A stretch of 64,000 bases of DNA from Candidatus Falkowbacteria bacterium (GCA_903897785.1 CAIUCZ010000030.1:18212-82211); one strand, 5' to 3'; shown: positions 2,634 through 49,693, numbered from the stretch's first letter. Numbers and translations are program-made. Notes: a model not told the origin generated them from the sequence alone.

Positions 2634-3794
2634 ATGCTTAAAAAATTTAAACAATTCATCGCTCGCCATTTTTCTTCGGACCGCCACCTGGGCAAGCCCG
2701 ATTTTGTTTTTTTGATCACTCTGGGCTTGATTGTTGTCTTTGGCTTGGTGATGCTGTTTTCCGCTTCGACAATCGTGGCGTACATGGCCTATCATGACGC
2801 TTATTATTTTGTGACGCGCCAGCTGCTCTGGCTGGCCATCGGCGGCGCGGTTTTTTATTTTCTTTATAATTTTGATTATCATCGTTGGCGTAAATACGCT
2901 TTTTCCATGCTGGTGGCATCGCTCGGCTTGCTGTCTTTGATTATGGTTCATCCGATCACCCGCGTGGTCAACGGCCATCGCAGTTGGATCAACTTGGGCA
3001 TTTTTTCTTTTCAGCCGTCCGAGTTTGTCAAAGTGACTTTGATTATTTATCTGGCCGCCCTGCTGGAATCCAGCGGCAAAGCCAAATCTTTGGACATCGA
3101 GCGCGCCAAAAAGTTTTTTATTGTCATCGGCGTGATTGCTGCGTTGATGCTTTTGCAACCAGACATCGGCACTCTGGCCATCATTATGGCCGCTTGTTTG
3201 ATTTTGTATTTTGTCAACGGCGGACAAATGAAAACTTTGCTGGTTTGCGCCGCTATGGCTTTGGCAATGCTTGCCGGGTACATCGGTTACCGCAGTTTGA
3301 AAGGCGGCGGCCAATCATATATGGCTTATCGTTTCACTTGTCTTTATAATCCAAGCTCCAGCGCCAGCGACAAATGTTACCAAATCAATCAATCGCTCTT
3401 GGCTGTCGGTTCGGGCGGCTGGTTCGGCCGCGGCATCGGCAACAGCCGGCAGAAGTTTTTATTCTTGCCCGAAGTGCAAAACGATTTTATTTTTGCTATC
3501 ATTGCCGAAGAAGTCGGCTGGATTTTTTCCAGCCTGCTTTTGGGCGCTTTTGTCTTGTTGATTTATCGCGGTATTTTGATTGCCAAACGCGCTCCGGATT
3601 CGTTTGGCCGCAACTTGGCCATTGGCCTGGTCAGCTGGATCGGCGTGCAGGTGATTGTCAATATCGGCGGAATTATCAATTTATTTCCGATGACCGGCGT
3701 GCCGTTGCCCTTGGTTAGCGCCGGTGGCACGGCTTTGTTGGCGGCCTTGTCTTCGGCTGGGATTATTGCCAATATTAGTCGGCAAGGGAAATAG
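2634..3794 (+). CDS. ftsW: SEDS-family peptidoglycan glycosyltransferase (FtsW/RodA)
   Basis: 386-aa polytopic protein with SEDS-like segments (FQPSEFVKV, LQPDIGT, LPEVQNDFIFA, GVPLPLVSAGGT). Lies between mraY and murG. Confidence 0.9.
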   Translation: MLKKFKQFIARHFSSDRHLGKPDFVFLITLGLIVVFGLVMLFSASTIVAYMAYHDAYYFVTRQLLWLAIGGAVFYFLYNFDYHRWRKYAFSMLVASLGLLSLIMVHPITRVVNGHRSWINLGIFSFQPSEFVKVTLIIYLAALLESSGKAKSLDIERAKKFFIVIGVIAALMLLQPDIGTLAIIMAACLILYFVNGGQMKTLLVCAAMALAMLAGYIGYRSLKGGGQSYMAYRFTCLYNPSSSASDKCYQINQSLLAVGSGGWFGRGIGNSRQKFLFLPEVQNDFIFAIIAEEVGWIFSSLLLGAFVLLIYRGILIAKRAPDSFGRNLAIGLVSWIGVQVIVNIGGIINLFPMTGVPLPLVSAGGTALLAALSSAGIIANISRQGK

Positions 3795-3798
3795 CACT

Positions 3799-3874
3799 GT
3801 CATCCCGAGCTTGCGAGGGATCTCTTAATTCACAAGCAAGAGGCGTAAGAGATCCCTCGTAAACTCGGGATGAC
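3799..3874. repeat. A-family hairpin repeat
   Basis: gtcatcccgagcttgcgagggatctcttaa / taagagatccctcgtaaactcgggatgac; about 29-nt arms. Confidence 0.85.
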
Positions 3875-3900: not shown

Positions 3901-5028
3901 ATGCTCGAGAAAAAAATAAAAGTCCTCTTGACCGGTGGCGGCACGGCCGGTTCAGTCTCGCCCTTGCTGGCAATGGCCGAGGACTTGCGCCAGCTCAAAG
4001 GCCGGGCTATAGATTTTTGTTGGCTGGGCGGTTATCACGGACCGGAACGAGCCATGGCCGGGGACGTTGACATCAAATTTGTTGCCATAAGTTCTGGCAA
4101 ACTGCGCCGTTATTTTTCCCTGTGGAACATTATCGATCCGTTTTTAATCATCATCGGTTTTATCCAAGCATTTTTTTATTTATTATGCTGGCGTCCAAAA
4201 ATAGTTTTGACGGCCGGTAGCTTTATCGCCGTGCCGGTCGCTATGGCCGCCTTTATTTTGCGTATTCCCATCTTGGTGCATCAGCAAGACGTCGTGCCCG
4301 GCCTGGCCAATAAAATTATGGCGCCCATGGCGACCGTGATTACCACGGTTTTTGAAAAATCTTTGAGCGACTATGGCAAAAAAGCCCGTGCTTATGGCAA
4401 TCCTGTCAGAAAAATATTTTCCACTGTCATCCCCGCAAGCGCTGTCATCCCGGCGTATGCCGGCCTGCCCGTTCCGGTTCGGGCGGGGGTCCAGGTTCTT
4501 AATTTAAAATTTAATAATAATTTACCAGTCGTTTTATTCCTCGGCGGCGGCACCGGCGCGCAAGGCCTTAATAATCTGGTAACCGAAGCGGCCGCAGAAT
4601 TAAGCCAGACCTGCAACATGATTCATCTGACCGGCCGCCACAAAACCGTCGAGCTGAAATTAGAAAACTATCAAGCTTATGAATTTTTAAACGCCGATCA
4701 AATGGCTGCTGCTTATGCCGTTGCCGACCTGGTCGTCTCGCGCGCCGGCATGGGCGTTTTGTCCGAGCTGGCCGCGCAAAAAAAATCGGCGATTATTATT
4801 CCCATGCCCGCTTCGCACCAAGAAGCCAATGCGAAGATTCTAAGCGATGCCAAAGCGGCCATCGTGTTGGCTGAGAAAAAAATCACCGCGCAAAAGTTGA
4901 GCGCGGAAATTAAAAAATTACTGGCCGATCCGGCCAAGTTGAAAATTTTAGGGAATAACCTGCAGCAAACCGTCAAAACTGACAGCCAAAATAAAATCGC
5001 GCGCCTTATTTTAGCAATCTTGAAATAA
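3901..5028 (+). CDS. murG: UDP-GlcNAc:lipid I N-acetylglucosaminyltransferase
   Basis: N-terminal LTGGGTAGSVSPLL glycine loop, GNPVR, LGGGTGAQ, and C-terminal HQEANA-type motif; dcw context. Confidence 0.93.
   Translation: MLEKKIKVLLTGGGTAGSVSPLLAMAEDLRQLKGRAIDFCWLGGYHGPERAMAGDVDIKFVAISSGKLRRYFSLWNIIDPFLIIIGFIQAFFYLLCWRPKIVLTAGSFIAVPVAMAAFILRIPILVHQQDVVPGLANKIMAPMATVITTVFEKSLSDYGKKARAYGNPVRKIFSTVIPASAVIPAYAGLPVPVRAGVQVLNLKFNNNLPVVLFLGGGTGAQGLNNLVTEAAAELSQTCNMIHLTGRHKTVELKLENYQAYEFLNADQMAAAYAVADLVVSRAGMGVLSELAAQKKSAIIIPMPASHQEANAKILSDAKAAIVLAEKKITAQKLSAEIKKLLADPAKLKILGNNLQQTVKTDSQNKIARLILAILK
4426..4495. repeat. A-family repeat copy lying in frame inside murG
   Basis: gtcatcc at 4426 and gtcatcccggcgtatgccgg at 4444-4463. 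The latter is identical to the arm at 45383-45402. Translated as VIPASAVIPAYAGLPVPVRAGVQ. Confidence 0.8.
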
Positions 5029-5410: not shown

Positions 5411-5458
5411 GTCATTCCCGTCCCGTATCGTAGTACGGGATAAACTCCGGCGGGAATC
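5411..5458. repeat. A-family hairpin repeat (short composite)
   Basis: gtcattcccg ... cgggaatc, with inner hairpin tcccgta tcgtag tacggga. Confidence 0.75.
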
Positions 5459-5512
5459 TTGTTCATTGTTTTAATTAGATTATTATTATACCATTGATTT
5501 AGTTTTTCATCT

Positions 5513-7240
5513 ATGACACAGCAACAAGCATTGGATATCATGAAAACCGGCGTTAACGTCTTTCTCACCGGCGAGCCGGGCGCCGGCAAAACCCACACGG
5601 TCAATCAGTATGTGGCGTATTTGCGCGCCCATGGCATTGAACCGGCCATTACCGCCTCCACCGGCATTGCGGCCACGCATATCGGCGGCTTGACCATTCA
5701 TTCCTGGGCGGGGATCGGTATCAAAGAAAAATTAAGCCAGCACGACATCAACAACATTGCCGGCACCGAGCGCCTGGCCAAGCGAATTGCCGCCGCCAAA
5801 GTGCTGTTAATCGACGAGGTCTCCATGCTGCCGCCCTATGTTTTAAATTTGGTCGATGCCGTTTGCCGCAAAATCAAAGACGAATCCACGCCCTTTGGCG
5901 GCTTGCAAATAATTTTGGTCGGCGATTTTTTCCAGCTGCCGCCGATTATGCGCCAGCAGAATATTGAAACGCAAGATTCTTTTTTTGACGTAGCGCCAAA
6001 AACTTTAGAAATGTCTGACCGTTTTGCTTATGGCGCCGCTGCCTGGGCGGCGGCCGAGCCGGTGGTTTGTTATTTGAGCGAGCAATACCGCCAGGACGAC
6101 AAAGATTTTTTAAATATTCTCTCCGCCATTCGCGCCAACGGTTTTGGTGCCGCTCATTTGGCGCAATTGCAGCCGCGCAAAATTGTTTATCAAAACGCGC
6201 CGCAAAATTTGCCCAAGCTCTACACCCACAATGTCGATGTCGATCGCGTCAACGACGAAATGATCCGCCGCCTGCCCGGCAAAGGCTATGGTTATGACAT
6301 GGTGGCGCATGGCCGCAAGGTTTTGGTGGAAGTCCTGCAAAAAGGCTGCCTCTCGCCCGTGCATTTGATTTTAAAAATCAACGCCGCGGTCATGTTTACC
6401 AAAAATCATCAAAAAGGCCTGTACGTCAACGGCACCTTGGGCACAGTGATTGGGTTTGATAGCGTTAACAAATATCCGATTGTGCAAACTCGTTCCGGCG
6501 AGCGCATTACGGCCGAACCGAGCGATTGGATTTTGGAAGACAACGGCGAAACTCTGGCAACGATTACGCAGTTGCCTTTGCGTTTGGCCTGGGCGATTAC
6601 GGTGCACAAAAGCCAGGGCATGAGTTTGGATGGCGCGGTGATGGATTTATCCTCGGTCTTTGAATTTGGCCAGGGCTATGTTGCTTTGTCGCGCGTGCGC
6701 CGTTTGGCCGGTTTGTTTTTGCTCGGCTGGAATCAGCGCGCCTTTGAAGTCCATCCGGATATTGTGCAGGTTGACCGGATTTTTAAAACCGAAAGTGAAG
6801 CGCAAACCGCGGCCTTTGCCGCAGTGGCGCGCGAAGAACTGCAAAAACAGCACGACGAGTTTATCGTTAACTGCGGCGGACGCTTGGCCGCGCAAGCTTT
6901 CGCGCATAAAACTAATTTTAAAAAAGTAAAGGTCAGTACTCAAGACCAGACTTTAGCTTTGTGGCGGGCGGGCAAAGATCTGGCCGAGATTGTGCAAGCG
7001 CGCGGCCTGAATCGAGAAACGATCATCGCGCATTTGGAAAAGCTGAAAGACCAAGGCAAAATCAAGGCTACGGAATTGGACAAGTTGATTCCCGACAGTC
7101 TGCGGCCGGGCTTGGCCGAAATTCAGCATGCTTTTGAGGAGCTGGGCACGGACAAGCTGGGGCCGGTGTTCGGGTTGTTTGACGGGCGGTATTCGTGGGA
7201 GGAACTGAAGCTGGCGAGGATGATGATGGGGAAGAAATAG
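5513..7240 (+). CDS. Pif1/RecD-like SF1 helicase with C-terminal HTH-type tail
   Basis: Walker A GEPGAGKTHT, Walker B LLIDEVSML, ILVGDFFQLPPI, AITVHKSQGMSLD and GYVALSRVR. The ~110-aa C-terminal helical tail is typical of helicases of this type. Confidence 0.85.
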   Translation: MTQQQALDIMKTGVNVFLTGEPGAGKTHTVNQYVAYLRAHGIEPAITASTGIAATHIGGLTIHSWAGIGIKEKLSQHDINNIAGTERLAKRIAAAKVLLIDEVSMLPPYVLNLVDAVCRKIKDESTPFGGLQIILVGDFFQLPPIMRQQNIETQDSFFDVAPKTLEMSDRFAYGAAAWAAAEPVVCYLSEQYRQDDKDFLNILSAIRANGFGAAHLAQLQPRKIVYQNAPQNLPKLYTHNVDVDRVNDEMIRRLPGKGYGYDMVAHGRKVLVEVLQKGCLSPVHLILKINAAVMFTKNHQKGLYVNGTLGTVIGFDSVNKYPIVQTRSGERITAEPSDWILEDNGETLATITQLPLRLAWAITVHKSQGMSLDGAVMDLSSVFEFGQGYVALSRVRRLAGLFLLGWNQRAFEVHPDIVQVDRIFKTESEAQTAAFAAVAREELQKQHDEFIVNCGGRLAAQAFAHKTNFKKVKVSTQDQTLALWRAGKDLAEIVQARGLNRETIIAHLEKLKDQGKIKATELDKLIPDSLRPGLAEIQHAFEELGTDKLGPVFGLFDGRYSWEELKLARMMMGKK

Positions 7241-8579: not shown

Positions 8580-8661
8580 AGTTAACAATTGTTAACCTGC
8601 TTGATAATAAAGTTAACATACGTTAACCTTAAAAATACTTACAATATTGTTATTAAATAAT

Positions 8662-10047
8662 ATGGATCTGACAAAAATCAAACGCGCGTATTTCATCGGC
8701 CTCAAAGGCGTGGGCATGACCATGCTGGCGCAATATTTGCATGGCCAGGGGATAAACATTTCCGGCTCGGACGTGGCCGAGGATTTTTCCACCACGGCCG
8801 AGACGTTACGCCGCATCGAGGCGACCATTTTCACTGATTTCAAGATCGGTCGGCTGGCCGGTTATGATTTGATTGTTTATAGCTCGGCTTATACGCCGGA
8901 AAAAAATGTGGAAGTGGCAGAAGCTCTAACGTCAAAAACAAAAACTTTGTCTTATGGAGAGGCCCTGGGCGAAGTGTTTAACCAACACTACGGCATTGCC
9001 GTCTGCGGTTCACACGGCAAGACGACGACGACCGCTTGGCTCGGCTATGTTTTGTGGGCCTCGGGCCTGGAGCCGAGCGTCATGGTCGGTTCGCGCGTGC
9101 CGCAGTTTTCCGGCGCGGCGCTGGTCGGCAAGTCTGATTTTTTAGTCATCGAGGCCGATGAATACCAAAACAAGCTGCAATATTTTGCGCCCAAAGCCAT
9201 CGTGTTAAACAATATTGATTTTGATCATCCGGATTTTTTTAGTGACGAGGCGGCTTATGCGCAAGTCTTTGTTGATTTTGTGGGCAAGCTGTCGGCCAAA
9301 GGTTGGCTGGTGGCTAATTTTGACGATGAGCAAGTGCGTAAAATTTCTGAAAGTTGCAAAGGCAAAGTGATTAGCTATGCCATCGATGCGGAAGCAGATT
9401 TGCGCGCCAGTCAGTTAAAAATCGAACAAGGCCGGCAATATTTTAAAGTCAGTTTAAATGACGAAGACCTGGGTGATTTCTCTTGCCAGTTATTGGGTAA
9501 GCATAATGTCTCCAATGCCTTGGCGGTCATTGCCGCCGGCATTGAGCTGGGCGTATCGTTGGTTAATCTGCGCACCCATCTGGGAAATTTCACCGGCACG
9601 GCGCGGCGTTTGGAAAAAGCCGGGACATACAACGGCGCCTTGATTTTTGATGATTATGCTCATCATCCGACAGAAATTAAAGCCAGCCTTGCCGCCGTGC
9701 GCCAGGCGTATCCGGACAAAAAAATCATGGTTGTTTTTCAAGCCCATACCTTTTCCCGCACGCGGGCATTTTTCAATGATTTTTTAAACAGTTTTGATTT
9801 GGCCGATGAAGTGCTGCTTTTGCCAATCTGGGGCTCGGCCCGCGAACAAGAAACCGAGGGCGAGAATTTGGCGCAAGATTTGGTGGAAAAAATGCGCTTG
9901 CTCAATGAAGAAAAAAGCGTCAGCTACGTTGACAACTTGGAAGAGGCGACCACTTATTTGCACGACAATTTGCACGAGGACGAGGTGGTGGTGCTGATGG
10001 GCGCGACGGATGTCTTTAGGATTAGGGAGAGTTTGCTCAAAAAGTAA
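8662..10047 (+). CDS. murC: UDP-N-acetylmuramate--L-alanine ligase
   Basis: FIGLKGVGMTMLAQ, GSHGKTTTT and the Mur ligase C-terminal domain. ATG at 8662 preferred over the TTG at 8647. Confidence 0.93.
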   Translation: MDLTKIKRAYFIGLKGVGMTMLAQYLHGQGINISGSDVAEDFSTTAETLRRIEATIFTDFKIGRLAGYDLIVYSSAYTPEKNVEVAEALTSKTKTLSYGEALGEVFNQHYGIAVCGSHGKTTTTAWLGYVLWASGLEPSVMVGSRVPQFSGAALVGKSDFLVIEADEYQNKLQYFAPKAIVLNNIDFDHPDFFSDEAAYAQVFVDFVGKLSAKGWLVANFDDEQVRKISESCKGKVISYAIDAEADLRASQLKIEQGRQYFKVSLNDEDLGDFSCQLLGKHNVSNALAVIAAGIELGVSLVNLRTHLGNFTGTARRLEKAGTYNGALIFDDYAHHPTEIKASLAAVRQAYPDKKIMVVFQAHTFSRTRAFFNDFLNSFDLADEVLLLPIWGSAREQETEGENLAQDLVEKMRLLNEEKSVSYVDNLEEATTYLHDNLHEDEVVVLMGATDVFRIRESLLKK

Positions 10048-10054
10048 AATATTA

Positions 10055-10175
10055 TTAATGCGAAAAATGCGAATTGGCATGCGAATACCACGAATTGAAA
10101 CCGCAAAAAATGCGAATTCGAATTCGCGGCTTTCGCTATGCAATTTGCGGTATTCGCATTAATTCGTGGATTCGC
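10055..10175. mobile_element. B-family CGAAT-word element (MITE/REP-like), forward copy
   Basis: ttaatgcgaaaaatgcgaatt ... gaattcgaattc (centre 10118-10129) ... ggtattcgcattaattcgtgg. Near-identical to 61023-61155. Confidence 0.8.
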
Positions 10176-11043: not shown

Positions 11044-11982
11044 ATGTCAATCAAGATTCAAGAACAAGTGCCTTTAGCCGGTCTGACCTCGTTTCAGGTC
11101 GGCGGCCCGGCCAGATATCTGGTCGAAGTCTCGACGCCCGATGAAGTTGATGAAGCTTTGCAATTTGCCAAAGAAAAAGCTTTGCCGATTTTTATTTTGG
11201 GCGGTGGCAGTAATTTGCTGGTCAGCGACAACGGTTTTACCGGTGTGGTCATCAAGCCGATCGCTCGAGAAGTTAAAATTGAAAATAATCAGATTGTCGC
11301 CGGCGCTGGCGTCGCCTTGGTGAAATTAGTTTTGGCGGCGGCCGAACATGGTTTCTCCGGCCTGGAGTGGGCGATGGGCATTCCGGGCACGATTGGCGGC
11401 GCGGTTTGCGGCAACGCCGGGGCTTATGGCTCATCAATTGATAAAAATGTATCACGCGTCACGGCGATTAATCTTGTTTCCGGAGAGATCAAAGATTTTT
11501 TGGTTGGTGAATGCGGCTTTGCTTATCGTTCCAGTTTTTTTAAACAAACTGGTGAGTGGTTGATCTGGCAAGCGGTATTGAATTTACAACCGGGTAAGCC
11601 AGAAGAAATTAAAGCTTTAGGCAAAAAATATTTGGACGATCGAATGAGCCATCAGCCAAAATTGCCGTCGGCCGGTTGCTTTTTTAAGAATTTTACCATG
11701 GAGCAATTAACCGCCACCAATCCGGAGCTGGTTAAACAAGAAGCGGTGCAAGGCGCGAGCAAGGGCGGCAAGCTGGGCTGTGGCTTTTTGCTGGAGCGGT
11801 TGGGCGTCAAAGGCATGCACGTCGGCGGCGCGACCGTCAGCCCACTGCATGCTAATTTTATTGTTAATGAAAATCATGCCACGGCCGAGGACATTAAAAC
11901 CCTGGCCGAAGAGATTAAGGCTAAAGCGCAAAAAGAATTAAGCGTAACGTTAGCGGAAGAAGTAAGAATGGTCGGATTTTAG
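11044..11982 (+). CDS. murB: UDP-N-acetylenolpyruvoylglucosamine reductase
   Basis: TSFQVGGPARYLVEV, ILGGGSNLLV, GIPGTIGGAV, and SAGCFFKN near the C-terminal domain. Confidence 0.93.
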   Translation: MSIKIQEQVPLAGLTSFQVGGPARYLVEVSTPDEVDEALQFAKEKALPIFILGGGSNLLVSDNGFTGVVIKPIAREVKIENNQIVAGAGVALVKLVLAAAEHGFSGLEWAMGIPGTIGGAVCGNAGAYGSSIDKNVSRVTAINLVSGEIKDFLVGECGFAYRSSFFKQTGEWLIWQAVLNLQPGKPEEIKALGKKYLDDRMSHQPKLPSAGCFFKNFTMEQLTATNPELVKQEAVQGASKGGKLGCGFLLERLGVKGMHVGGATVSPLHANFIVNENHATAEDIKTLAEEIKAKAQKELSVTLAEEVRMVGF

Positions 11983-12000: not shown

Positions 12001-12068
12001 GTCATTCCCGCGTATGCGGGAATCTTTTTGCTATTACACCACGAGATTCCCGCATACGCGGGAATGAC
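12001..12068. repeat. A-family hairpin repeat
   Basis: gtcattcccgcgtatgcgggaatc / gattcccgcatacgcgggaatgac. Each arm is itself a palindrome. Confidence 0.85.
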
Positions 12069-13974: not shown

Positions 13975-14001
13975 AAGAGACGCAAAATCTTGCGTCTCTA
14001 C
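13975..14001. repeat. H-family hairpin (GAGACGCA...TGCGTCTC)
   Basis: gagacgcaaaatcttgcgtctc; the same hairpin occurs at 49653-49676. No T-run; lies inside a presumed operon. Confidence 0.7.
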
Positions 14002-14007
14002 AAATCC

Positions 14008-14730
14008 ATGCCTCTCATTGAACTCAAAAATCTGGACAAAGAATACCGCAATGACGAAGTGGTCACCAAGGTGTTGTTTGATATTACTTTTTCCATTGGC
14101 AAAGGCGAGTTTGTCTCGATCATGGGTCCGTCCGGTTCGGGCAAATCAACCTTGATGCACATTTTGGGCTTTTTGGATCGCGCCACCGGCGGCAGTTATC
14201 ATTTTGAAGGCAAAAAAGTGGCCATGCTGTCCGATGACGAGCTGGCGCGCTTGCGCAATGAACAAATCGGTTTTGTCTTTCAAGCCTTTAATCTCTTGCC
14301 GCGCACCAGCGTCTTGGACAACGTCGCTTTACCTTTGACTTATGTGCGCAAATTGGAATGGCCGAGCATCAATGCCCGCGCCGAGCAAGTTCTGACCAGC
14401 GTTGGCCTGGGGCATCGTTTAAATTATTTTACTAATCAAATCTCCGGCGGCGAAAAACAGCGGGTGGCGATTGCCCGCGCTTTAGTCAATAATCCGGCGG
14501 TGATTTTTGCCGACGAGCCGACCGGCAACTTGGATTCGGTGTCCGGTGTCCAGGTGATGGAGATTTTACAAAAACTAAACGACGAAGGCCACACGATTAT
14601 TTTAGTGACGCATGAAACGTTTACTTCTGAATATGCCAAGCGCATTATTCATGTCAGAGACGGCCGAATTATCAGCGATGAGCCGGTCAAGCATCGAAGA
14701 GTGGCGAAGGATGGGCAAAAGTTGAAGTAG
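14008..14730 (+). CDS. MacB/LolD-type ABC transporter ATP-binding protein
   Basis: GPSGSGKST (Walker A), ISGGEKQRVAIARAL (signature), IFADEPTGNLD (Walker B), VTHE (H-loop). Confidence 0.93.
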   Translation: MPLIELKNLDKEYRNDEVVTKVLFDITFSIGKGEFVSIMGPSGSGKSTLMHILGFLDRATGGSYHFEGKKVAMLSDDELARLRNEQIGFVFQAFNLLPRTSVLDNVALPLTYVRKLEWPSINARAEQVLTSVGLGHRLNYFTNQISGGEKQRVAIARALVNNPAVIFADEPTGNLDSVSGVQVMEILQKLNDEGHTIILVTHETFTSEYAKRIIHVRDGRIISDEPVKHRRVAKDGQKLK

Positions 14731-14795
14731 AATCTGGAATTTAGAATTTGGAATTCGTATTTTCCAGATTCCAGATTCCAGATTCTAAATTCCAT
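14731..14795. repeat. C-family word hairpin (CTGGAAT / ATTCCAG)
   Basis: 14736-14754 pairs with 14775-14793 over 19 bp with one T:G position. It fills the whole ATPase-permease gap. Confidence 0.85.
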
Positions 14796-17363: not shown

Positions 17364-17437
17364 GTTAAAAGTTGAAAGTTATAAAGTTCATAAAGTCAAA
17401 ATTCACTTTATGGACTTTTAACTTTATGAACTTTATA
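17364..17437. repeat. D-family word hairpin (ATAAAGTT / AACTTTAT)
   Basis: gttaaaagttgaaagttataaagttcataaagt / actttatggacttttaactttatgaactttata. Confidence 0.85.
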
Positions 17438-17510
17438 GCTCACGTATCATGTTGCGCATTTTCTTGTTTTCCGCTATAATAATACTAACTTTAAGCTATA
17501 ATTTTTTGTT

Positions 17511-20552: not shown

Positions 20553-20644
20553 TTAATTAACGCACGAAACTACGAATTTTATGCGAATACCGCAAATTAC
20601 ATAGCGAAAGCCACGAATTCGAATTCGCATTTTTCGCATTAATG
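20553..20644. mobile_element. B-family element, reverse-oriented partial copy
   Basis: tacgaattttatgcgaataccgcaaattacatagcgaaagccacgaattcgaattcgcatttttcgcattaatg. This is the reverse complement of the right half of 10055-10175 plus a short terminal arm. Confidence 0.8.
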
Positions 20645-20649: not shown

Positions 20650-21906
20650 ATGATAATCGGAATCGATGCCTCCCGCGCTAATCGCTCGCATAAAAGTGGA
20701 ACGGAATGGTATTCCTACTATTTGATTCGTGAATTGGCGCGGCTGGATCACAAAAATCAATATATTTTATACACCGACCAGCCGTTGACCGACGGTTTGG
20801 CGGATTTAACTTTGCCCGACGGCCAATTTTTAAACAAAGAGCCGGAGTTTGAAGGCGGCAATTGGCAAAAAATCATTTCTCCGGGCAAAAATTTTCGCGC
20901 TAAAGTTTTACACTGGCCGTGGAGCTTTTTTTGGACTCAGGGCCGCTTGTCTTGGGAAATGCTATGGCGTGCGCCCGACGTTTTGTTTATTCCGGCGCAC
21001 GCTCTGCCGTTAATCCATCCCAAAAAATCCGTCGTCACTTTACATGACATGGGTTTTGCCCGGCGCAAAAAATTGTATGAAAAAAATCCGATCAGTCTGG
21101 TCAAAGGACTCGATCTTTTAGTGCGCTTGTTGACGCGCGGCAAATACGGCGCCAATTCTTATGATTATCTTTGCTGGTCCACCGAGTTTGCCGTGCGCCA
21201 AGCGCAAAAAATTATTACCATCTCCAACTTTTCCAAGCTGGATATTATTGATTTATATCATCCGCCTTTAGATAAGGTTATTGTTGTCTACAACGGTTTT
21301 AGTAAAAATTTATATCGACCGGCCGATCGAGCGACTGCGGCGGCAATCGGCAAAAAATATAATTTGACTGCGCCTTATGTTTTTTATGTCGGCCGCTTGG
21401 AGCGCAAAAAAAATATCGCCAATTTAATTGAAGCCTTTGCTATTATCAAGGCTCGCCGTAAAGATTTTGCTCATCAGCTGTGTTTGGCCGGCGATGCCTC
21501 TTTTGGCTATGATGAAATAAAATATTTAATGCAAGAATTTGGCTTGGAAAACCGAGTTGTCTTGCCCGGCTGGGTGCCGGAAACAGATTTGCCTGCGCTT
21601 TTTTCCGGCGCGGCTGCTTTTGTTTTTCCCTCAAAGTACGAAGGTTTTGGCATTCCGCTCTTGCAGGCGATGGCTTGCGGCGCACCGATTGCCGCGTCGG
21701 AAGCCGCTTCCATTCCCGAAGTCGCCGGGGAGGCGGCGGTTTATTTTGATCCGGATGATGTTTATGTCATGGCCTTGGCGATTGAGAAAATCCTGTTTAA
21801 CCAAACCTTGAGTGATAACCTGGTTGCGGCCGGGTTGGAACGAGTCAAGCAGTTCGGCTGGAAGCAATGCGCCGGGGAAACGCTGAAAGTTTTGGAAAAT
21901 CTGTAA
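20650..21906 (+). CDS. glycosyltransferase family 4 (GT-B, Glycos_transf_1 type)
   Basis: C-terminal PSKYEGFGIPLLQAMACGAPI (EX7E-type motif). Confidence 0.85.
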   Translation: MIIGIDASRANRSHKSGTEWYSYYLIRELARLDHKNQYILYTDQPLTDGLADLTLPDGQFLNKEPEFEGGNWQKIISPGKNFRAKVLHWPWSFFWTQGRLSWEMLWRAPDVLFIPAHALPLIHPKKSVVTLHDMGFARRKKLYEKNPISLVKGLDLLVRLLTRGKYGANSYDYLCWSTEFAVRQAQKIITISNFSKLDIIDLYHPPLDKVIVVYNGFSKNLYRPADRATAAAIGKKYNLTAPYVFYVGRLERKKNIANLIEAFAIIKARRKDFAHQLCLAGDASFGYDEIKYLMQEFGLENRVVLPGWVPETDLPALFSGAAAFVFPSKYEGFGIPLLQAMACGAPIAASEAASIPEVAGEAAVYFDPDDVYVMALAIEKILFNQTLSDNLVAAGLERVKQFGWKQCAGETLKVLENL

Positions 21907-21909
21907 AAA

Positions 21910-21999
21910 TTACTACAAATACAAATTATTACAAATATACAAATTTCAATCCTCGTTGCGTGCGGATTTAGATATTTGTAATAATTTGTATTTGTAGTA
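21910..21999. repeat. E-family word hairpin (TACAAATA / TATTTGTA)
   Basis: ctacaaatacaaattattacaaatat / atatttgtaataatttgtatttgtag; about 26-bp near-perfect arms. Confidence 0.85.
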
Positions 22000-22946: not shown

Positions 22947-22980
22947 ACCCCCAAAGCTACGGCGATGGGGGTCTTTTTAT
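22947..22980 (+). terminator. intrinsic terminator
   Basis: accccc aaagctacggcgat gggggt followed by cttttta. Confidence 0.65.
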
Positions 22981-22981
22981 T

Positions 22982-23156
22982 CTACAAATACAAATTATTA
23001 TCACCGCTTGTCGCGGGATTCCGCCCTCAATTAACAATATAAGTGGCGGAACAAATTTACAAATATCGTTCTCGCAGGTTTTATTTGTAAATTTGCCTGT
23101 CCGCCGTAGCTTTAGCGAAGTTCGAGCGGAGGCGGATGATAATTTGTATTTGTAGG
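22982..23156. repeat. E-family arms enclosing a mosaic of other hairpins
   Basis: ctacaaatacaaattatta (22982-23000) ... taataatttgtatttgtag (23138-23156). The interior holds ggattccgcc/ggcggaac, acaaatttacaaata/tatttgtaaatttg, and ccgccgtagctttagcgaag..cggaggcgg. Confidence 0.8.
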
Positions 23157-25272: not shown

Positions 25273-25354
25273 GTTCTTAAAGTTTATAAAGTTACAAAGT
25301 TCATAAAGTGTCGCGCTTTATAACTTTAAGAATTTTATATCTTTTAACTTTAAC
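25273..25354. repeat. D-family word hairpin
   Basis: gttcttaaagtttataaagttacaaagttcataaagtg / ctttataactttaagaa...cttttaactttaac. Confidence 0.8.
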
Positions 25355-26421: not shown

Positions 26422-26482
26422 CTTAAGTTATAAAGTTCATAAAGTTGAAAGTTCTTAAAGTGATAATTTTTTCAACTTTTAA
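26422..26482. repeat. D-family word hairpin
   Basis: cttaagttataaagttcataaagttgaaagttcttaaagtg ... ttcaacttttaac. Confidence 0.75.
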
Positions 26483-26488
26483 CCACAC

Positions 26489-28191: not shown

Positions 28192-28355
28192 CGCGCAAAA
28201 CTACGAATTATACGCGAATACCGCAAATTACATAGCGAAAAATGCGAATGAAACGCCGAAGGTCTAATCCTTAACAAACAATATTAGAGAATTCGCATTT
28301 TTTGCGGTTTCAATCCGTGGTATTTGCATGTTAATTCGCATTTTTTGCATTAATT
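28192..28355. mobile_element. B-family element, reverse orientation, with 40-nt central insert
   Basis: Reverse complement of the 10055/61023 element. It is interrupted exactly at the central GAATTC|GAATTC by gaaacgccgaaggtctaatccttaacaaacaatattagag (28250-28289). Confidence 0.8.
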
Positions 28356-28365: not shown

Positions 28366-29850
28366 ATGTCAGAACCAGAAAAAGTTCGCCTCAGATTAGC
28401 TCCCAGCCCCACCGGCTTCTTGCACATCGGTAATTTACGCACCGCTTTGTTTGGTTATTTGTTGGCAAAGTCTATGCATGGTGAATTTATCTTGCGCATT
28501 GAAGACACGGATGAAAAAAGAGAAGTCGAGGGTGCGGTCGACAGTCTGCTTAATGTTTTAACTTGGCTGGGCATTAATTTTGACGAAGGCCCGCATCTGG
28601 GCGGGGATTACGGCCCTTATATACAAACCCGGCGCCTGGATATTTATCAAAAAGAAATCCAAACGCTACTCGACAACCGTAAAGCCTACCGTTGTTTTTG
28701 CACGCCGGAACGTTTGACCGAGATGCGCGAAGAACAACAAAAAAATAAACAAGCGCCGCGTTATGATCGCCATTGCCGCAATCTGTCTGAAGATGAAGCG
28801 CAAGCCAAAATTAAGGCCGGCGAAAGTTTTGTTATTCGCCAAGCCATGCCGCTCGATGGTGTGGTGGAGGTTTATGATGAATTACGCGGGGCTATCAAAT
28901 TTCAAGCCGAAGACCTGGATGATCATGTCTTGATTAAAGCCAACGGCGTGCCGACTTATCAATTTGCCAGCGTCGTCGATGACCATTTGATGGAAATTTC
29001 TCATGTCACGCGCGGCGAAGAATGGCTGCCGTCTTTTCCGAAGAATATTTTATTGTATCAAGCTTTTGGCTGGATACTGCCCAAATTTATTCATCTGCCG
29101 TTGATCCTTAATAAAACCGGGGGCAAGCTGTCAAAACGCCAAGGCGATGTGTTTGTCGAAGACTATAAAACTAAAGGCTATCTGTCGGAAGCTTTAATTA
29201 ATTTTTGTGCTTTTTTAGGCTGGCATGGTAAAACCGATCAGGAAATTTTTAGCCTGGAAGAATTGGAAAAAGAATTTTCAATCGCCGGCATGGGCGCCAG
29301 TCCGGCCGTGTTTGATTTGGAGAAACTAAATTATTTGAACGGTTATTATATTCGCCAAATGTCGCCAGAGAATTTAGTTGACTTGGTTAAGCCATACCTA
29401 ACAGAGGCTATTGCCACCGCACCTTTCAATATTAGTGATGAATATTTAACCAAGATTATCAGTCTTGAACAAGAACGGCTAAAAGTTTTAGGCGAAATCA
29501 CGCAGGCGACTGCTTATTTCTTTGTTGACCAGTCGGAATACGAAGCACAGCTCTTGGTCTGGAAAAAATCAGACGCTGAAAAAACAAAAACTAATTTGCA
29601 AACTTTAGCTGATTACCTGGCGGTTTATTCTGGTGATTGGACCAAAGAAAATTTAGAAAGCTCTATTAAGCAATTAATCGCCGATCAGGGCGGTCAAGTC
29701 GGCGATTATCTTTGGCCGATGCGTGTCGCTTTGACCGGCCGCCAGTTTTCACCCGGACCGTTTGAAGTGGCGGCTGTCTTGGGGAAAGAAATAACTTTAA
29801 AAAGAATTAAAGGTGCAATTAATATTTTGAATCTGGAATCTGGAAGCTAG
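28366..29850 (+). CDS. gltX: glutamate--tRNA ligase
   Basis: RLAPSPTGFLHIGNLRTAL (HIGH) and KLSKRQG (KMSKS). The last residues NLESGS are encoded by the C-family repeat. Confidence 0.95.
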   Translation: MSEPEKVRLRLAPSPTGFLHIGNLRTALFGYLLAKSMHGEFILRIEDTDEKREVEGAVDSLLNVLTWLGINFDEGPHLGGDYGPYIQTRRLDIYQKEIQTLLDNRKAYRCFCTPERLTEMREEQQKNKQAPRYDRHCRNLSEDEAQAKIKAGESFVIRQAMPLDGVVEVYDELRGAIKFQAEDLDDHVLIKANGVPTYQFASVVDDHLMEISHVTRGEEWLPSFPKNILLYQAFGWILPKFIHLPLILNKTGGKLSKRQGDVFVEDYKTKGYLSEALINFCAFLGWHGKTDQEIFSLEELEKEFSIAGMGASPAVFDLEKLNYLNGYYIRQMSPENLVDLVKPYLTEAIATAPFNISDEYLTKIISLEQERLKVLGEITQATAYFFVDQSEYEAQLLVWKKSDAEKTKTNLQTLADYLAVYSGDWTKENLESSIKQLIADQGGQVGDYLWPMRVALTGRQFSPGPFEVAAVLGKEITLKRIKGAINILNLESGS

Positions 29851-29912
29851 AAGCTGGAATAATTTAAATTTTTTTCTTTCATTCCAGCTTCCAGATTCTA
29901 GCTTCTAGCTTC
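29829..29912. repeat. C-family word hairpin
   Basis: atctggaatctggaagctagaagctggaat / attccagcttccagattctagcttctagcttc. The left arm contains the gltX stop codon. Confidence 0.85.
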
Positions 29913-34131: not shown

Positions 34132-34268
34132 ATTTGCGATAAATTTAATACGAATGTTACGAATTGTATCCGAATACTACGAATTGATTACGAATGTCGT
34201 GAATTTTATATTCGCATTTTTCGCGGTGCCATTCGCAGTATTCGCATACAATTCGTAGATTCGCATTA
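34132..34268. mobile_element. B-family-like CGAAT-word hairpin, degenerate copy
   Basis: aatacgaatgttacgaattgtatccgaatactacgaattgattacgaatg / attcgcatttttcgcggtgccattcgcagtattcgcatacaattcgtagattcgcatt. Confidence 0.7.
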
Positions 34269-34690: not shown

Positions 34691-34773
34691 GTTAAAAGTT
34701 CATAAAGTTATAAAGTTATAAAGTCATGGATTCGTAGAACTTTCAACTTTATAACTTTATGAACTTTATAAAC
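34691..34773. repeat. D-family word hairpin
   Basis: gttaaaagttcataaagttataaagttataaagt / actttcaactttataactttatgaactttataaac. Confidence 0.85.
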
Positions 34774-34804
34774 TCAAAAACTACTTCGTCTGGATATTAT
34801 TTTT

Positions 34805-36921: not shown

Positions 36922-36996
36922 GTCATCCCGAGGAACGAGGAATCTCTAAAACCATAAGCCGGAGGTGTAAGAGATTCCTCGCAAGCTCGGGATGAC
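36922..36996. repeat. A-family hairpin repeat
   Basis: gtcatcccgaggaacgaggaatctct / agagattcctcgcaagctcgggatgac. Confidence 0.85.
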
Positions 36997-37453: not shown

Positions 37454-37454
37454 A

Positions 37455-37538
37455 GTTCATAAAGTTATAAAGTTATAAAGTTATAAAGCGCGAAACTTTA
37501 TGAACTTTACGAACTTTATAACTTTCAACTTTATAAAC
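37455..37538. repeat. D-family word hairpin
   Basis: gttcataaagttataaagttataaagttataaagcg / cgaaactttatgaactttacgaactttataactttcaactttataaac. Confidence 0.85.
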
Positions 37539-37539
37539 T

Positions 37540-38229
37540 CTAATTCGGCAATTGATGTTTCTGTTTTATAATCGCCATCGCCTCTTCGTATTTTTTTACC
37601 TTTTTTAGGTTGGGCAAAAATTTATAAACAAAGCCCGGCAACCAAATACTCATCGTGCCGCCGCCGACAAAACTAACCAAAACTTTATCCAGCCACAAAC
37701 CGATTTTCCCTTGCTCCATCATCGTCAGCCATAAATCCCAATCTTGAAACCGTTTTATTTTTTCGTCAAAACCGGAAAAATCAGTCCGCCGCACCAAGGC
37801 AAAAGTACAGATATAAGGTTCACGGCGCAAGCGATCAACATTGTATGGCCCGCAAACAAATTTTTTCCAATCAAGCTTAAACGAACAATAAACAAAACTG
37901 ATATTCGGTTGAGCGGACAAAGCTTCTTGCATTGTCTGCAAAGCTTCCGGTTTTAGCTTGGCATCGGCATCACAAAATAAAACATACTCGCCTTTAGATT
38001 CTTTAAAGCCTCGATTCCGCGCCGCCGGAGCGCCCTTGTTTTCTTGGCTGATTAATAAAAATTTGCTAAAACGCGTTTCGTATTTTTGCAAAACGCCCAA
38101 AGTATTATCAGTCGAACCATCATTAACGATAATCACTTCAAAATCTTGATACGTTTGAGTAAGCAAGCTGTCCAAGCAAGCGCCGATGTTGGCGGCTTGG
38201 TTGTAGGCGGGAATAATAACTGAAATCAT
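37540..38229 (-). CDS. glycosyltransferase family 2
   Basis: ISVIIPAYNQ, VIIVNDGSTD, FCDADA (DXD). Confidence 0.85.
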   Translation of the reverse strand: MISVIIPAYNQAANIGACLDSLLTQTYQDFEVIIVNDGSTDNTLGVLQKYETRFSKFLLISQENKGAPAARNRGFKESKGEYVLFCDADAKLKPEALQTMQEALSAQPNISFVYCSFKLDWKKFVCGPYNVDRLRREPYICTFALVRRTDFSGFDEKIKRFQDWDLWLTMMEQGKIGLWLDKVLVSFVGGGTMSIWLPGFVYKFLPNLKKVKKYEEAMAIIKQKHQLPN

Positions 38230-42895: not shown

Positions 42896-45355
42896 TCAGC
42901 AACTATTCACATATAGCGGATCAATCAACCCGATCAGCCGGCTGGGCGTCATTGGCCGACCAAAGCCGTCAAACTGGCTATAAGACAGGTATACACCTGC
43001 TCGCGCCCGGGTCAAAGCGACATAAAACAAGCGTAGCTCTTCTTCAAAATCAGCTTTATACATCGGGAAATGAAATTCGTTCAGCTTGACCAAAAAAACA
43101 TAATCAAACTCCAAGCCCTTGGCGGCATGCACCGTAATAATCGGCACCTTCCCCTGCTCCAGTCCCAAGAAGTCTAAATTTTTAACCAGACTGGCGTAAT
43201 TAATTAATTCTTGCAAAGCGACGTTGCTCGGTTTTTGAGGATCGTCTTTTTGCGCGAATAACTGGGCCAGCGCGTCAAAAGATTTTAGTCGTTTGTTAGA
43301 GTCCGGCTCTTTGGCATAATATTCCCGCAAACCGGAATCATCCAAAATTTTATTCAAGGCTTCGGCTGGCCGGACTTTGGTAATTAGTGCTTGCCAGTCC
43401 TCAATCATTTTTGCCAAAACGACAAATTTTTTGGAAAATTCTTGAAACAATTCGCGCCGTTTGCTTGTTCCGGTTCGGGCCAAATTAATCAGGTACTCAA
43501 GCAAGCCGACCGTCGCCGCTACGTCGTCATCGGCGCTATGGGTGGCACTGGCCAGATTTAAATTTTTGGCCAAGGTTGACAGGCGATAATTTTCCGATTG
43601 CACAAACCGTTTGGCCAAATCCAAGGTGTCATAATAATCCGCGGCTTGAAAATTTAGGCCATAGCGCGCGCTGTTGTTGGTAATCATCGTCAAATCAAAA
43701 TTAACATTATGGCCGACGACAATCGCTTGGCCGACAAAATTTTTGAGCTTGCCTAAAATTTCTTTGGGCTCGTGGCCGTTTTCGCGTAAAAATTGATCGG
43801 ACAGTTTGTGCACTTGCTCGGACGTGCCGACCGGCTTTTGATTTTTAATATAATAATGAAATTCCTCGCCCGCCCGGCCGTTGATTAATTCCACGGCATA
43901 AATCTGAATAATTTCATCCGTCTGAAAATTTACACCGGTGGTCTCCGTGTCCAAAACGACAATTCGACCATGAGCAAAGGCGTCGAGCAAGGGGGCGAAC
44001 GGTTCAGTCAGCTGATAATTTTTAAAGCTCAACAAATCGGAGACTTTCAGACCGACCGGGTTGCCCTCGGCGCGAATCTTGTTTAAAGTCGCCTGTCCAA
44101 TAGCGCGTGCTGGGCGCTCCACCAAACGATAAGCCGCGTCTAGGTCAAATTTATTAAAAATAATTTTTAAATAAGCATAAATGTCTTTGACCTCTTGGCG
44201 CCGAAAAAAATTATATTGGTCAACCGTGATGTGGGCGATATTTTCTTTGGCAAAAATTTCCGCCAGATCGCTAATCGGCTGATTGGCTCGAGCCAGTACC
44301 GCAATCGTCGCCTTGGGTTCACGCGCGCGCAAGTCTTTGATTTGTGAGACCACCGAAGTCGCCTCTTCGGCAAAGTTGTAGCCGGCAAACAACTGCACGC
44401 ATTTTTCCGGTCCCTCGGCCGCACTGGCGCCGGTTAGTTCTTTGGTATTTTGTTGTTTGAAATTTTGCAAAACAGATTTGATAGCCGCCAATAGCTGCGG
44501 ATTGAACCGATAATTAATGCTCAAATTTAATTTTGTCACCGGCGCAAAATGCGTTTTGAATAACTCGGCAATATATTTTGGTTTACTGCCGCGCCAGCCA
44601 TAAATCGTCTGGTCCAGATCGCCGATCAAAGCTAAATTTTTATGCACGCGCGCCAATTGTTTAACCACCAAATATTCGGACAAATGCGTGTCTTGAAATT
44701 CATCCAGCTGAATAAATTTAAACCGGCGCGACCATTTGTTTTTTAACTCATCGTCTAAATAAAGTGCGCGCAAAGTCAGATAAACCAGTTGATTAAAATC
44801 CACGGCGTTTTGCTGCAATAGAACTTGCTCATATTTCTGGCCGAGCTCCACCAGCTGCGCCGGCAAATTAACCGGCTCCACCTGGTAGCCAATGGCAATT
44901 TCCAGCTGCGTTATTTTGTAACGATAAAGCCGTTCCAGTAAATCTAAAATCGCCCGCTTTTCTCGAGCAATCGGCGCACGCGGGTAATCGGCTAAAAGAT
45001 TATTCATGACGGCCGCCTGCTCATCTTCGTCCATAATGACAAAATCTGCGGTCAGCCCGAGAGCTTTGCTTTCGGCTTTTAAAAAATAGGCACAAAAACC
45101 GTGAAAAGTGTTAATCACCACCTCGCCCGACTGGCTAACGTCCGCTAAACACTGGCGTAAGCGCGTTTTCATTTCTTCGGCCGCTTTGTTGGTAAAGGTC
45201 AGGCACAAAATCTCAGCCGGCGCAACCCCCGCTTTTATGGCTGAAATCACGCGCTGGGCCAGGACAGTCGTCTTGCCCGTGCCGACCGGCGCGGAGATTA
45301 AATACGCGCCAAAAACACTGTCGATTATTTTTTGTTGTTGTTCGTTGAAGTTCAT
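42896..45355 (-). CDS. UvrD/PcrA/Rep-type SF1 helicase with embedded DEDDh 3'-5' exonuclease domain
   Basis: Helicase motifs APVGTGKT, LDEFQDT, IYGWRG, VHAAKGLEFDYVFL and YVALTRAR. Exonuclease motifs VLDTETTG, GHNVNFD and HSADDDV lie at about aa 464-625 (43481-43966). Start set to the ATG at 45355. Confidence 0.88.
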   Translation of the reverse strand: MNFNEQQQKIIDSVFGAYLISAPVGTGKTTVLAQRVISAIKAGVAPAEILCLTFTNKAAEEMKTRLRQCLADVSQSGEVVINTFHGFCAYFLKAESKALGLTADFVIMDEDEQAAVMNNLLADYPRAPIAREKRAILDLLERLYRYKITQLEIAIGYQVEPVNLPAQLVELGQKYEQVLLQQNAVDFNQLVYLTLRALYLDDELKNKWSRRFKFIQLDEFQDTHLSEYLVVKQLARVHKNLALIGDLDQTIYGWRGSKPKYIAELFKTHFAPVTKLNLSINYRFNPQLLAAIKSVLQNFKQQNTKELTGASAAEGPEKCVQLFAGYNFAEEATSVVSQIKDLRAREPKATIAVLARANQPISDLAEIFAKENIAHITVDQYNFFRRQEVKDIYAYLKIIFNKFDLDAAYRLVERPARAIGQATLNKIRAEGNPVGLKVSDLLSFKNYQLTEPFAPLLDAFAHGRIVVLDTETTGVNFQTDEIIQIYAVELINGRAGEEFHYYIKNQKPVGTSEQVHKLSDQFLRENGHEPKEILGKLKNFVGQAIVVGHNVNFDLTMITNNSARYGLNFQAADYYDTLDLAKRFVQSENYRLSTLAKNLNLASATHSADDDVAATVGLLEYLINLARTGTSKRRELFQEFSKKFVVLAKMIEDWQALITKVRPAEALNKILDDSGLREYYAKEPDSNKRLKSFDALAQLFAQKDDPQKPSNVALQELINYASLVKNLDFLGLEQGKVPIITVHAAKGLEFDYVFLVKLNEFHFPMYKADFEEELRLFYVALTRARAGVYLSYSQFDGFGRPMTPSRLIGLIDPLYVNSC

Positions 45356-45382
45356 ATACTTATAATAAACCCTTCCTATTTG

Positions 45383-45461
45383 GTCATCCCGGCGTATGCC
45401 GGGATCCAGTTTCATCTGCTTCGTTCGTGAATTTCTGGATACTGGCATACGCCGGTATGAC
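45383..45461. repeat. A-family hairpin repeat
   Basis: gtcatcccggcgtatgccgggatccag / ctggatactggcatacgccggtatgac. Confidence 0.85.
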
Positions 45462-46200: not shown

Positions 46201-46204
46201 GATT

Positions 46205-46918
46205 TTATTGCAAAGCAAAATCCACTTTGACGGTAATCATCACGTCTTTATCAATACTGGTAACGTCGTAGCTGCCATAATCGTCAACCGTCACCGTGTC
46301 GGCCGGCATCACCTGCACCACGCCCATGGTTACGCTTTTGACCGCGCCCAAGGTTTTGCCTGACGATTGAGCGATAATTTCCGCGCGGGCTCGAGCGTCT
46401 TTAATCGCCGCCGGCAACAGCGAGACGCGCAATTCCGGCAATTTTGTATAATTATATTCCACCGGATTGGGCGCGAAAAACACGCCTTGGTCAGATAAAA
46501 TCGCGCTGTTTTTGGCCAGCGACTTCATTTTTTGCACGTTGGTCGACTTCAAATCAATGCTCTGCGTCAAACTATATTGTTGCGGCGCGCCTTGGTTGTT
46601 GTTGTAAACCTGATTCATAAACACCGGCGAAATATCCACGTTTTTAAAACCTTGAGCTGTCAAAAAAGTGTTGACTGTTTTTTCATCCCCCTTCATCTGA
46701 TTATAACCGTCTTTCAGGGTGTCGGTGGTAATGCTGCGCGAAAAGTTGGCCGTCCAATGCGCCTGATCGGACGTGATGCGCTGTTTGGCCGAACCGGAGA
46801 CGGTAATCTCGTCGGTTACTTGCTTGGTTTTGAAAAAAGACCAAGAAAATATTGCCGAAGCGATGACCAAGCCCAGCGCTAAAACAATCCAGCCCCAAGT
46901 GTTTTTTTGCGAGTCCAT
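46205..46918 (-). CDS. SIMPL/DUF541-like periplasmic protein
   Basis: N-terminal TM or signal anchor; ITVSGSAKQRITSDQAHWTANF-type start typical of DUF541. Confidence 0.65.
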   Translation of the reverse strand: MDSQKNTWGWIVLALGLVIASAIFSWSFFKTKQVTDEITVSGSAKQRITSDQAHWTANFSRSITTDTLKDGYNQMKGDEKTVNTFLTAQGFKNVDISPVFMNQVYNNNQGAPQQYSLTQSIDLKSTNVQKMKSLAKNSAILSDQGVFFAPNPVEYNYTKLPELRVSLLPAAIKDARARAEIIAQSSGKTLGAVKSVTMGVVQVMPADTVTVDDYGSYDVTSIDKDVMITVKVDFALQ

Positions 46919-49676: not shown

Positions 49677-49693
49677 ATTTTGTAGAATAAACC

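Follow-up and report, generated by a model that had tools for sequence, protein, structure and literature searches.

Why does a murG gene carry, within its reading frame, a segment rich in guanine and cytosine (GC), part of which recurs exactly in an intergenic repeat of the same stretch of DNA? The question is raised by 64 kb from Candidatus Falkowbacteria bacterium (GCA_903897785.1 CAIUCZ010000030.1:18212-82211), which has a GC content of 45%, comes from a single metagenome-assembled genome (MAG) assembly, and is referred to below as the window. The segment, at 4426-4494, is very probably a composite of two repetitive extragenic palindromic (REP) units of the CGTC-1 type, the family of dRS3 and of the Rickettsia palindromic element (RPE) RPE-6, and now forms an in-frame part of murG. 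Already known are RPEs (2000), reportedly described by Ogata et al., and intragenic CGTC REPs (2013); what is new is modest, namely the host lineage (Patescibacteria), murG and alkD as targets, and arrays of truncated units on the 5′ side of full ones.

The in-frame block in murG

The gene and the parts of the block are arranged as follows.

3901-5028, plus strand: murG open reading frame (ORF) hosting the insert, 375 amino acids, taken from the ORF list, with Pfam Glyco_transf_28 and Glyco_tran_28_C
4426-4494, plus strand: repeat-derived in-frame block, 69 nt, 23 codons, residues 176-198, read as VIPASAVIPAYAGLPVPVRAGVQ
4426-4443, plus strand: 5′ part of unit 1, with GTC of the tag, the 5′ stem ATCCCCGC (4429-4436), AAGC and then GCT
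4444-4463, plus strand: unit 2, GTCATCCCGGCGTATGCCGG, with the tag, the 5′ stem ATCCCGGC, a GTAT loop and GCCGG of the 3′ stem
4467-4484, plus strand: additional imperfect palindrome of small size, GCCCGTTCCGGTTCGGGC, seen in the predicted fold and placed between unit 2 and the terminal 3′ stem
4483-4494, plus strand: 3′ stem GCGGGGGT and tail CCA(G), with CCAG at 4491-4494

A first-pass annotation, made from the sequence without database searches, had reported that the 20-mer GTCATCCCGGCGTATGCCGG at 4444-4463 is identical to 45383-45402 and that a second GTCATCC starts at 4426, and both are present as described. The same annotation had the segment end at 4495; its in-frame reading as VIPASAVIPAYAGLPVPVRAGVQ holds, and the end is moved to 4494. 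When up to three mismatches are allowed, GTCATCCCGGCGTATGCCGG is found at eight sites in the window, as compared with 0.00 expected from 100 dinucleotide-preserving shuffles, and GTCATYCC is found 15 times, including the copy starting at 4426, as compared with 2.1 expected. Furthermore, the GC content of murG is approximately 73% in the insert (measured over 4426-4491) versus 48% in the remainder of the gene.

Both units are tagged TGTC, the tag of unit 1 being completed by the T at 4425. The 5′ stem of unit 1 is complemented by the terminal GCGGGGGT (4483-4490) through seven Watson-Crick pairs and one G-T pair across a 46-nt interval, and this outer stem is present in the minimum free energy fold of the block. 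Unit 2 has lost the last three positions of its stem together with its tail (CCT replaces GAT), and six of its eight pairs remain. Stem and loop differ between the two units, and the murG copy, a degenerate composite of the two, is not a dimer of the HH type (inverted, tags outside) that prevails in this family. Two readings fit this arrangement: an outer unit whose loop was expanded by a second unit and which is closed by 4483-4494, or a truncated 5′ half placed before a decayed unit 2. The 3′ stem at 4483-4490 favours the outer unit; arrays of truncated 5′ halves are a trait of the family (described below), and nested insertion is therefore no longer preferred over a tandem arrangement.

The CGTC-1 family in the window and in known systems

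CGTC-1 REPs are defined by a CGTC tag (often TGTC or CCTC), an 8-bp stem with A-T pairs at the first and second positions, a 4-nt loop, and a short unpaired tail that is mostly CCA; they mostly form HH dimers near the 3′ ends of genes, and they correspond to dRS3 in Neisseria and to RPE-6 in R. conorii (Di Nocera, De Gregorio, Rocco 2013, BMC Genomics 14:522; PMC3733652). The window contains 17 arms of one family with an NGTC tag, an 8-bp stem starting with AT, a 4-nt loop, and a CCA tail. The tags are TGTC (11 arms), GGTC (3), and CGTC (3), and the stems are ATCCCGGC, ATTCCCGC, or ATCCCGAG, with the 3′ side changed to match; all stems begin with AT, and pairing is 8/8 in seven arms and 7/8 in one more. 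The loops are GTAT, which is also that of the inner unit in murG, GTAG, GGAT, and GCAG, and CCAG follows five of the arms. In tag, stem, loop, and tail, the arms thus agree with the CGTC-1 definition. Six HH dimers are found in the window, four of which lie 5-23 nt past a stop codon, as is usual for CGTC-1, and the three dimers that were folded gave z values of -7.6 to -12.5 relative to shuffles, as expected of inverted doublets that form one hairpin (REPINs).

The dimers flank almost every gene of the murG cluster, the other members of which were assigned by Pfam.

1451-2503: mraY, upstream member of the mraY-ftsW-murG cluster
2634-3794: ftsW, between mraY and murG
8647-10047: murC, downstream of murG
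11044-11982: murB, downstream of murG

Dimers and solo units of the family, dimers being given without strand, are located as follows.

832-957: intergenic dimer; its left unit (832-906) has a loop of ~58 nt with other small hairpins, and retains the tag, ATTCCC ... GGGAAT, and CCA
2526-2593: intergenic HH dimer between mraY and ftsW, fold z = -7.6
3799-3874: intergenic HH dimer with the variant stem ATCCCGAG, between ftsW and murG, 27 nt upstream of the murG start
5411-5460, plus strand: solo unit in a divergent intergenic region, with the loop expanded to ~29 nt and holding an inner hairpin
12001-12068: intergenic HH dimer after murB, both arms fitting the dRS3 consensus ATTCCC-N8-GGGAAT, fold z = -12.5
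36922-36996: intergenic HH dimer of the ATCCCGAG stem type
45383-45461: intergenic HH dimer, left arm holding GTCATCCCGGCGTATGCCGG, 5 nt past the stop codon of an AlkD-like gene, fold z = -8.2
62240-62266, minus strand: solo unit CGTCATTCCCGCGCAGGCGGGAATCC, of which 62243-62263 equals the Neisseria REPIN master 21-mer ATTCCCGCGCAGGCGGGAATC

Units with expanded loops (832-906, 5411-5460) keep the tag, the stem ends, and the tail. The site 45383-45402, regarded in the first-pass annotation as an intergenic repeat arm, is indeed an arm of the inverted dimer 45383-45461, which sits between the AlkD-like stop codon and the start of a UvrD-like helicase (45355).

Other classes of repeats, among them CRISPR repeats and integron attC sites, were set aside; the units form either inverted dimers or solo hairpins and lack regular spacers and target-site duplications. 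Transposable elements of the miniature inverted-repeat type (MITEs) are marked by terminal inverted repeats and target-site duplications, and no flanking direct repeats are seen here. An Rfam scan of the whole window returned no family at threshold, and a 13-mer census of repeats in its coding regions was too noisy.

The closest known system is that of the CGTC-1 REPs themselves, with which the window arms share tag, stem, loop, tail, and the position of HH dimers just downstream of genes. CGTC REPs also occur within genes, often DNA repair genes, and have no dedicated linked transposase (PMC3733652); in both systems, intragenic in-frame copies encode peptides of the VIPAxAGI or LDxRxRxxD type and no linked transposase was found. 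The intragenic peptides listed for CGTC-1 of R. conorii in the supplement of that study are VIPAKAGI, SFPRKRES, and LDSRFRRND (PMC3733652), the first and last of which correspond to the frames found here, VIPAYAG in murG and LDPGIRRDD in the AlkD-like gene. By contrast, Patescibacteria are outside the published hosts (Proteobacteria, Chlorobi, Bacteroidetes, Spirochaetes, and Thermotogae; PMC3733652), murG is outside the listed targets, the window tags are mostly TGTC or GGTC, and the murG copy is a degenerate composite.

RPEs, exemplified by RPE-6 and RPE-4, are likewise palindromic, lie in frame in housekeeping genes, and are tolerated in loops. The resemblance to RPEs proposed in the first-pass annotation is probably more than an analogy, because the window arms match the CGTC-1 definition and this class includes RPE-6; a kinship with RPE-6 is suggested by the published equation of RPE-6 with CGTC-1 and by the matching encoded peptides. 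The classic RPE-1 measures ~100-150 bp and specifies its own conserved peptide. The murG block, with 69 nt built from 27-nt units, falls short of that size, and the host phylum differs.

The dRS3 consensus is ATTCCC-N8-GGGAAT (PMC1797815), and it is matched exactly at 12004-12023, 12046-12065, and 62244-62263 of the window, whereas the murG units, with the stems ATCCCCGC and ATCCCGGC, fail the strict consensus. The long arrays with RS spacers of the Neisseria NIME are absent here, and neither an Nf-phage nor an IS110-type recombinase was seen in the window. The 21-mer ATTCCCGCGCAGGCGGGAATC, present on the minus strand at 62243-62263, is the most common REPIN sequence of Neisseria meningitidis, and Bertels and Rainey have tied the Neisseria 21-mer REPINs to a Group 2 REP-associated tyrosine transposase (RAYT) (bioRxiv 10.1101/2021.07.10.451892). 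The REPIN-RAYT system of these authors is similar in its inverted REP doublets, 14-25 nt apart, foldable into one hairpin and present in many copies; it differs in its classic tag, GTAG as against CGTC, and searches of the 64 kb and of 120 related loci did not reveal the single-copy RAYT gene by which it is defined.

Intragenic ERIC elements and MITEs, reportedly treated by Delihas in 2007, and the Coxiella QMITE said to belong with them, are likewise small non-autonomous repeats that form in-frame fusions with host genes. These are longer, with terminal inverted repeats and target-site duplications, whereas no duplication flanks the elements here.

Insertion and retention in the MurG linker

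The two motifs that bracket the block, GNPVR (residues 166-170 of the murG product) and LGGGTGAQ (starting at residue 214), are separated by 43 residues. The first-pass annotation had counted 39, as compared with about 21 in E. coli MurG; 22 residues are found in Pseudomonas aeruginosa MurG (3S2U). An alignment of 32 Patescibacteria homologues was examined together with solved MurG structures; an exact-protein lookup of MurG contigs returned no record. GNPVR and GGGTGA are intact in the window MurG and invariant across this alignment, and the ORF is open throughout, as had been stated. The linker mostly has 19-28 residues in the homologues, and subtraction of the 23 insert residues from that of the window MurG leaves 20, within this range. 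The window MurG has ~16-21 extra residues exactly at the repeat block (~16 in the alignment of homologues), and the repeat segment is absent from all 32 homologues. A homologous linker of the same length and sequence in distant orthologues, named in advance as the finding that would make the similarity to the intergenic repeat coincidental, was seen neither in these homologues nor in the solved structures.

The AlphaFold2 model of the window MurG, built on the homologue alignment, has a mean predicted local distance difference test (pLDDT) score of 89 and a predicted template modelling score of 0.87, and its closest Foldseek matches are crystal structures of MurG (1F0K, 3S2U, and 7D1I). The sole stretch of low confidence comprises approximately residues 181-200, with pLDDT <50 at 188-197. 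Low confidence is thus limited to the insert within a MurG fold, and the model accordingly depicts the insert as a flexible loop within the linker that joins the N- and C-terminal domains, much as the surface loop suggested by the first-pass annotation, with both Rossmann-like domains intact. As in RPEs, a conserved gene appears, on this model, to have accepted an in-frame insertion without loss of fold.

Retention of the block is plausible on three grounds. It would have stayed in murG because its length, a multiple of three, keeps the frame, because five of the six frames of an arm have no stop codon on our reading of the sequence, and because the site is a tolerant linker between the two domains, variable in length and outside the conserved motifs. 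Translation of the block would give a loop of 23 residues, enriched in Pro, Ala, Val, and Gly, that is probably disordered, and the murG product is predicted to yield the tryptic peptide IFSTVIPASAVIPAYAGLPVPVR. The gene itself is presumably essential, judging from its mraY-ftsW-murG context. Most likely, the insert has no function of its own and is a neutral passenger.

Selection of the insert for a use of its own, for instance as a longer, flexible, Pro/Ala-rich linker that alters MurG domain closure, membrane contact, or partner binding, is considered very unlikely. Such a use could be argued from the hairpin, which has eroded while the frame was kept, and from the independent inserts at the same linker in five other Patescibacteria MurGs (P0003, P0004, P0006, P0011, and P0019), but these vary in sequence and length between lineages, most homologues have none, the insert has low predicted order, and the same repeat occurs in unrelated proteins, which was put forward by Di Nocera et al. 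as an argument against functional constraint (PMC3733652). In two of these MurGs, the same linker contains a different hairpin, CCTGCCTGCGCAGACAGG, read as LPAQTG (L121 10513-10590 for P0006 and L122 10516-10580 for P0003), flanked by 13-14 nt direct repeats (GAAGTAAGAAGTTA; GAAATTAGAAATT); a second copy of this hairpin was not found in 17-21 kb of flanking DNA.

Several observations weigh against a REP insertion in murG. The insertion is judged from distant homologues: the nearest MurG among 5.8 billion proteins is 52% identical, so that no close relative is available, and no empty site was found; an exact search of metagenome contigs with a 27-nt murG flank gave no match. The linker is naturally variable, as the different inserts of the other Patescibacteria MurGs illustrate. 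Neither direct repeats flanking any element nor a transposase was found in the window. Folding of the murG block gives no advantage over shuffled sequences (z = -0.83), so that the hairpin has for the most part decayed within murG; its units may have been nested or tandem. Translation of the insert is predicted, and the activity of the MurG that bears it is putative. Finally, GTCATCCCGGCGTATGCCGG occurs without the 3′ stem as apparently native coding sequence in two high-GC metagenome contigs (L153 and L233), where it is read as VIPAYAGF and VIPAYAGL. Although this last observation would permit a native murG linker that encodes VIPAYAG in GC-rich codons, such a coincidence is scarcely credible in a window of 45% GC in which no shuffle gave a single match: the segment is a GC island, carries not only the 20-mer but a further tag as well as a matching 3′ stem with its CCA tail, and is lacking in every homologue. 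Single exact matches, as in L153 and L233, can arise by chance in very large databases.

A false insert, produced by a short-read assembler that collapsed or mis-joined repeat-bearing reads, is most improbable. Repeats are classic trouble spots for assemblers, the MAG is a single assembly, and the 90% identity cluster of the window MurG has one member on one contig. A mis-join, however, would link unrelated loci, whereas the two halves of murG continue in frame with their motifs in order; none of the other elements in the window is cleanly reproduced in the block, and similar in-frame cases are found in independent assemblies, as described in the next section.

Other in-frame copies, spread, and copying

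The second in-frame case lies in the window itself, in an AlkD-like DNA alkylation repair gene (45466-46218, minus strand; Pfam DNA_alkylation).

45880-45915, minus strand: solo CGTC-1 arm (45880-45906) plus 9 nt, read as TKALDPGIRRDD

This insert is absent from 18 of 19 homologues (58-64% identity), the remaining one (P0122) having a shorter, unrelated insert at that place, and the arm retains a perfect 8-bp hairpin. Elsewhere, the tgt gene of a member of the Parcubacteria (L056 ~6900-7080, CAVYBN010000007.1) has a 60-residue in-frame insertion consisting of a full CGTC-1 dimer, which splits the alignment to solved Tgt exactly at residue 111 and begins with VIPANSPVIPAKAGIQ, the same doubled start as in the murG insert. 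The ORF of this tRNA-guanine transglycosylase looks frameshifted near its 3′ end. A proteobacterial uvrA ORF also reads through a full dimer. The gatB gene of a member of the Saccharibacteria (L038), with VIPAQAGIY in frame, was set aside, as it has only a few extra residues relative to solved GatB and is not a clean insertion.

In a collection of species-representative genomes, a degenerate 24-nt arm pattern was found at at least 120 loci, as compared with ~4 expected by chance on our own estimate. The matches come from at least 15 phyla, including Saccharibacteria, Paceibacteria, Parcubacteria, Chloroflexota, Planctomycetota, Bacteroidota, and all classes of Proteobacteria, and Neisseria lactamica is among the matched species; conservation of a REP over so many phyla is unusual. 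The exact murG 20-mer GTCATCCCGGCGTATGCCGG is carried by at least 120 metagenome contigs, and among the matches listed it is preceded by C in 93/122 and by T in 24/122 and followed by GATCCAG in 79/122. It is therefore a very common sequence type, and the 20/20 identity between murG and 45383-45402 indicates that both belong to the family, though not necessarily that murG received a recent copy from 45383.

In all DNA fetched, full CGTC-1 units number 541, of which 24, from 15 sources, carry directly upstream between one and four truncated 5′ halves in tandem, whereas a 3′-half copy lies downstream of only one of the 541. Each truncated half comprises the tag, the 5′ stem, part of the loop, and a spacer of 5-12 nt that is specific to the array, with a period of 16-27 nt. 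Such arrays were found in L006, L049, L056, L063, L088, L090, L094, L110, L120, L154, L158, L180, and others, and at 4426-4463 of the window; no mention of them was found in Di Nocera et al. (2013). They may be a footprint of unit copying.

The asymmetry between 24 upstream arrays and one downstream copy also points to local duplication, and a murG block built entirely on the spot has to be weighed, either by ectopic recombination or gene conversion with a nearby REP dimer or by hairpin-driven slippage that doubled VIPAxA. REP dimers border almost every gene of the cluster, and 3799-3874 lies 550 nt upstream of the block. This nearest dimer, however, carries a different stem type, ATCCCGAG, the two murG units match in neither stem nor loop, in contrast to fresh tandem arrays found at other loci, and the initial insertion of a unit into the gene would still be required, so that purely local building is unlikely, while part of the doubling may be due to local recombination or slippage. 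On the preferred reading, a CGTC-1 unit would have arrived in murG by the copying process of the family itself.

As to the enzyme, a transposase of the RAYT-like HUH Y1 type, which would act in trans on hairpins of single-stranded DNA, is put forward tentatively, at somewhat less than an even chance, by analogy with Neisseria, because the 21-mer shared with the window forms the REPINs tied to Group 2 RAYT. Searches of the window and the 120 loci with an HUH-motif regular expression and with tblastn using E. coli RayT gave nothing significant, a weak negative given that RAYTs are single-copy and that 64 kb of this genome was covered. It is rather unlikely that CGTC-1 hairpins are still being copied in a ~1-Mb Patescibacteria genome without any RAYT, with the 5′-sided truncated arrays as footprints of that copying. 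Copying would then begin from the tag and, on reaching the hairpin loop, break off or change template, and the doubled VIPAxA in murG and in the Parcubacteria tgt would be such footprints; if this were true, the tiny gene sets of Patescibacteria could pin down the enzyme that moves CGTC REPs, dRS3, and short RPEs.

On its own, the insert in murG adds one ordinary instance to a phenomenon already described. CGTC REPs, a pan-bacterial family, extend to the very small genomes of Patescibacteria, where, as in Rickettsia, they are built in frame into housekeeping proteins, in this case a peptidoglycan enzyme and an enzyme of DNA repair. Annotators and modellers who meet odd GC-rich loops in such proteins, for example VIPAxAG or LDxxxRxDD, should read them as repeat-derived. 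Small genomes rich in CGTC REPs are a good place to seek the mobilising enzyme, because these REPs have no known transposase.

REP dimers can also be mistaken for N-terminal extensions, as in the UvrD-like helicase, the longest ORF of which begins at an ATG within the REP dimer (MPVSRNSRTKQMKLDPGIRRDD..., 45355-45448), whereas the conserved protein starts at 45355. In this UvrD/PcrA-type helicase (42896-45355, minus strand), an RNase_T exonuclease domain is embedded at residues 466-618 within the UvrD_C region. Furthermore, at least six further families of AT-rich palindromic repeats, for example ATTAATGCGAAAAATGCGAATT, AAGTTCATAAAGTTATAAAGTT, GAATCTGGAATCTGGAAGCT, TACAAATACAAATTATTACAAAT, AGTCGTTAGTCGTTAGTC, and AGACGCAAAATCTTGCGTCTCTACA, occupy most intergenic spacers of the window.

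10054-10163, 20564-20643, 28214-28354, 34158-34257, 61020-61163: AT-rich palindromic repeats, first group
17364-17440, 25278-25337, 26425-26483, 34695-34775, 37454-37540, 61747-61852: AT-rich palindromic repeats, second group
14728-14794, 29817-29912, 51938-52040, 53275-53342: AT-rich palindromic repeats, third group
21906-21999, 22976-23155, 52042-52079: AT-rich palindromic repeats, fourth group
53830-54087: AT-rich palindromic repeats, fifth group
13978-14002, 49653-49821: AT-rich palindromic repeats, sixth group

Some of these repeats overlap the 3′ ends of ORFs, for example at 29817-29850.

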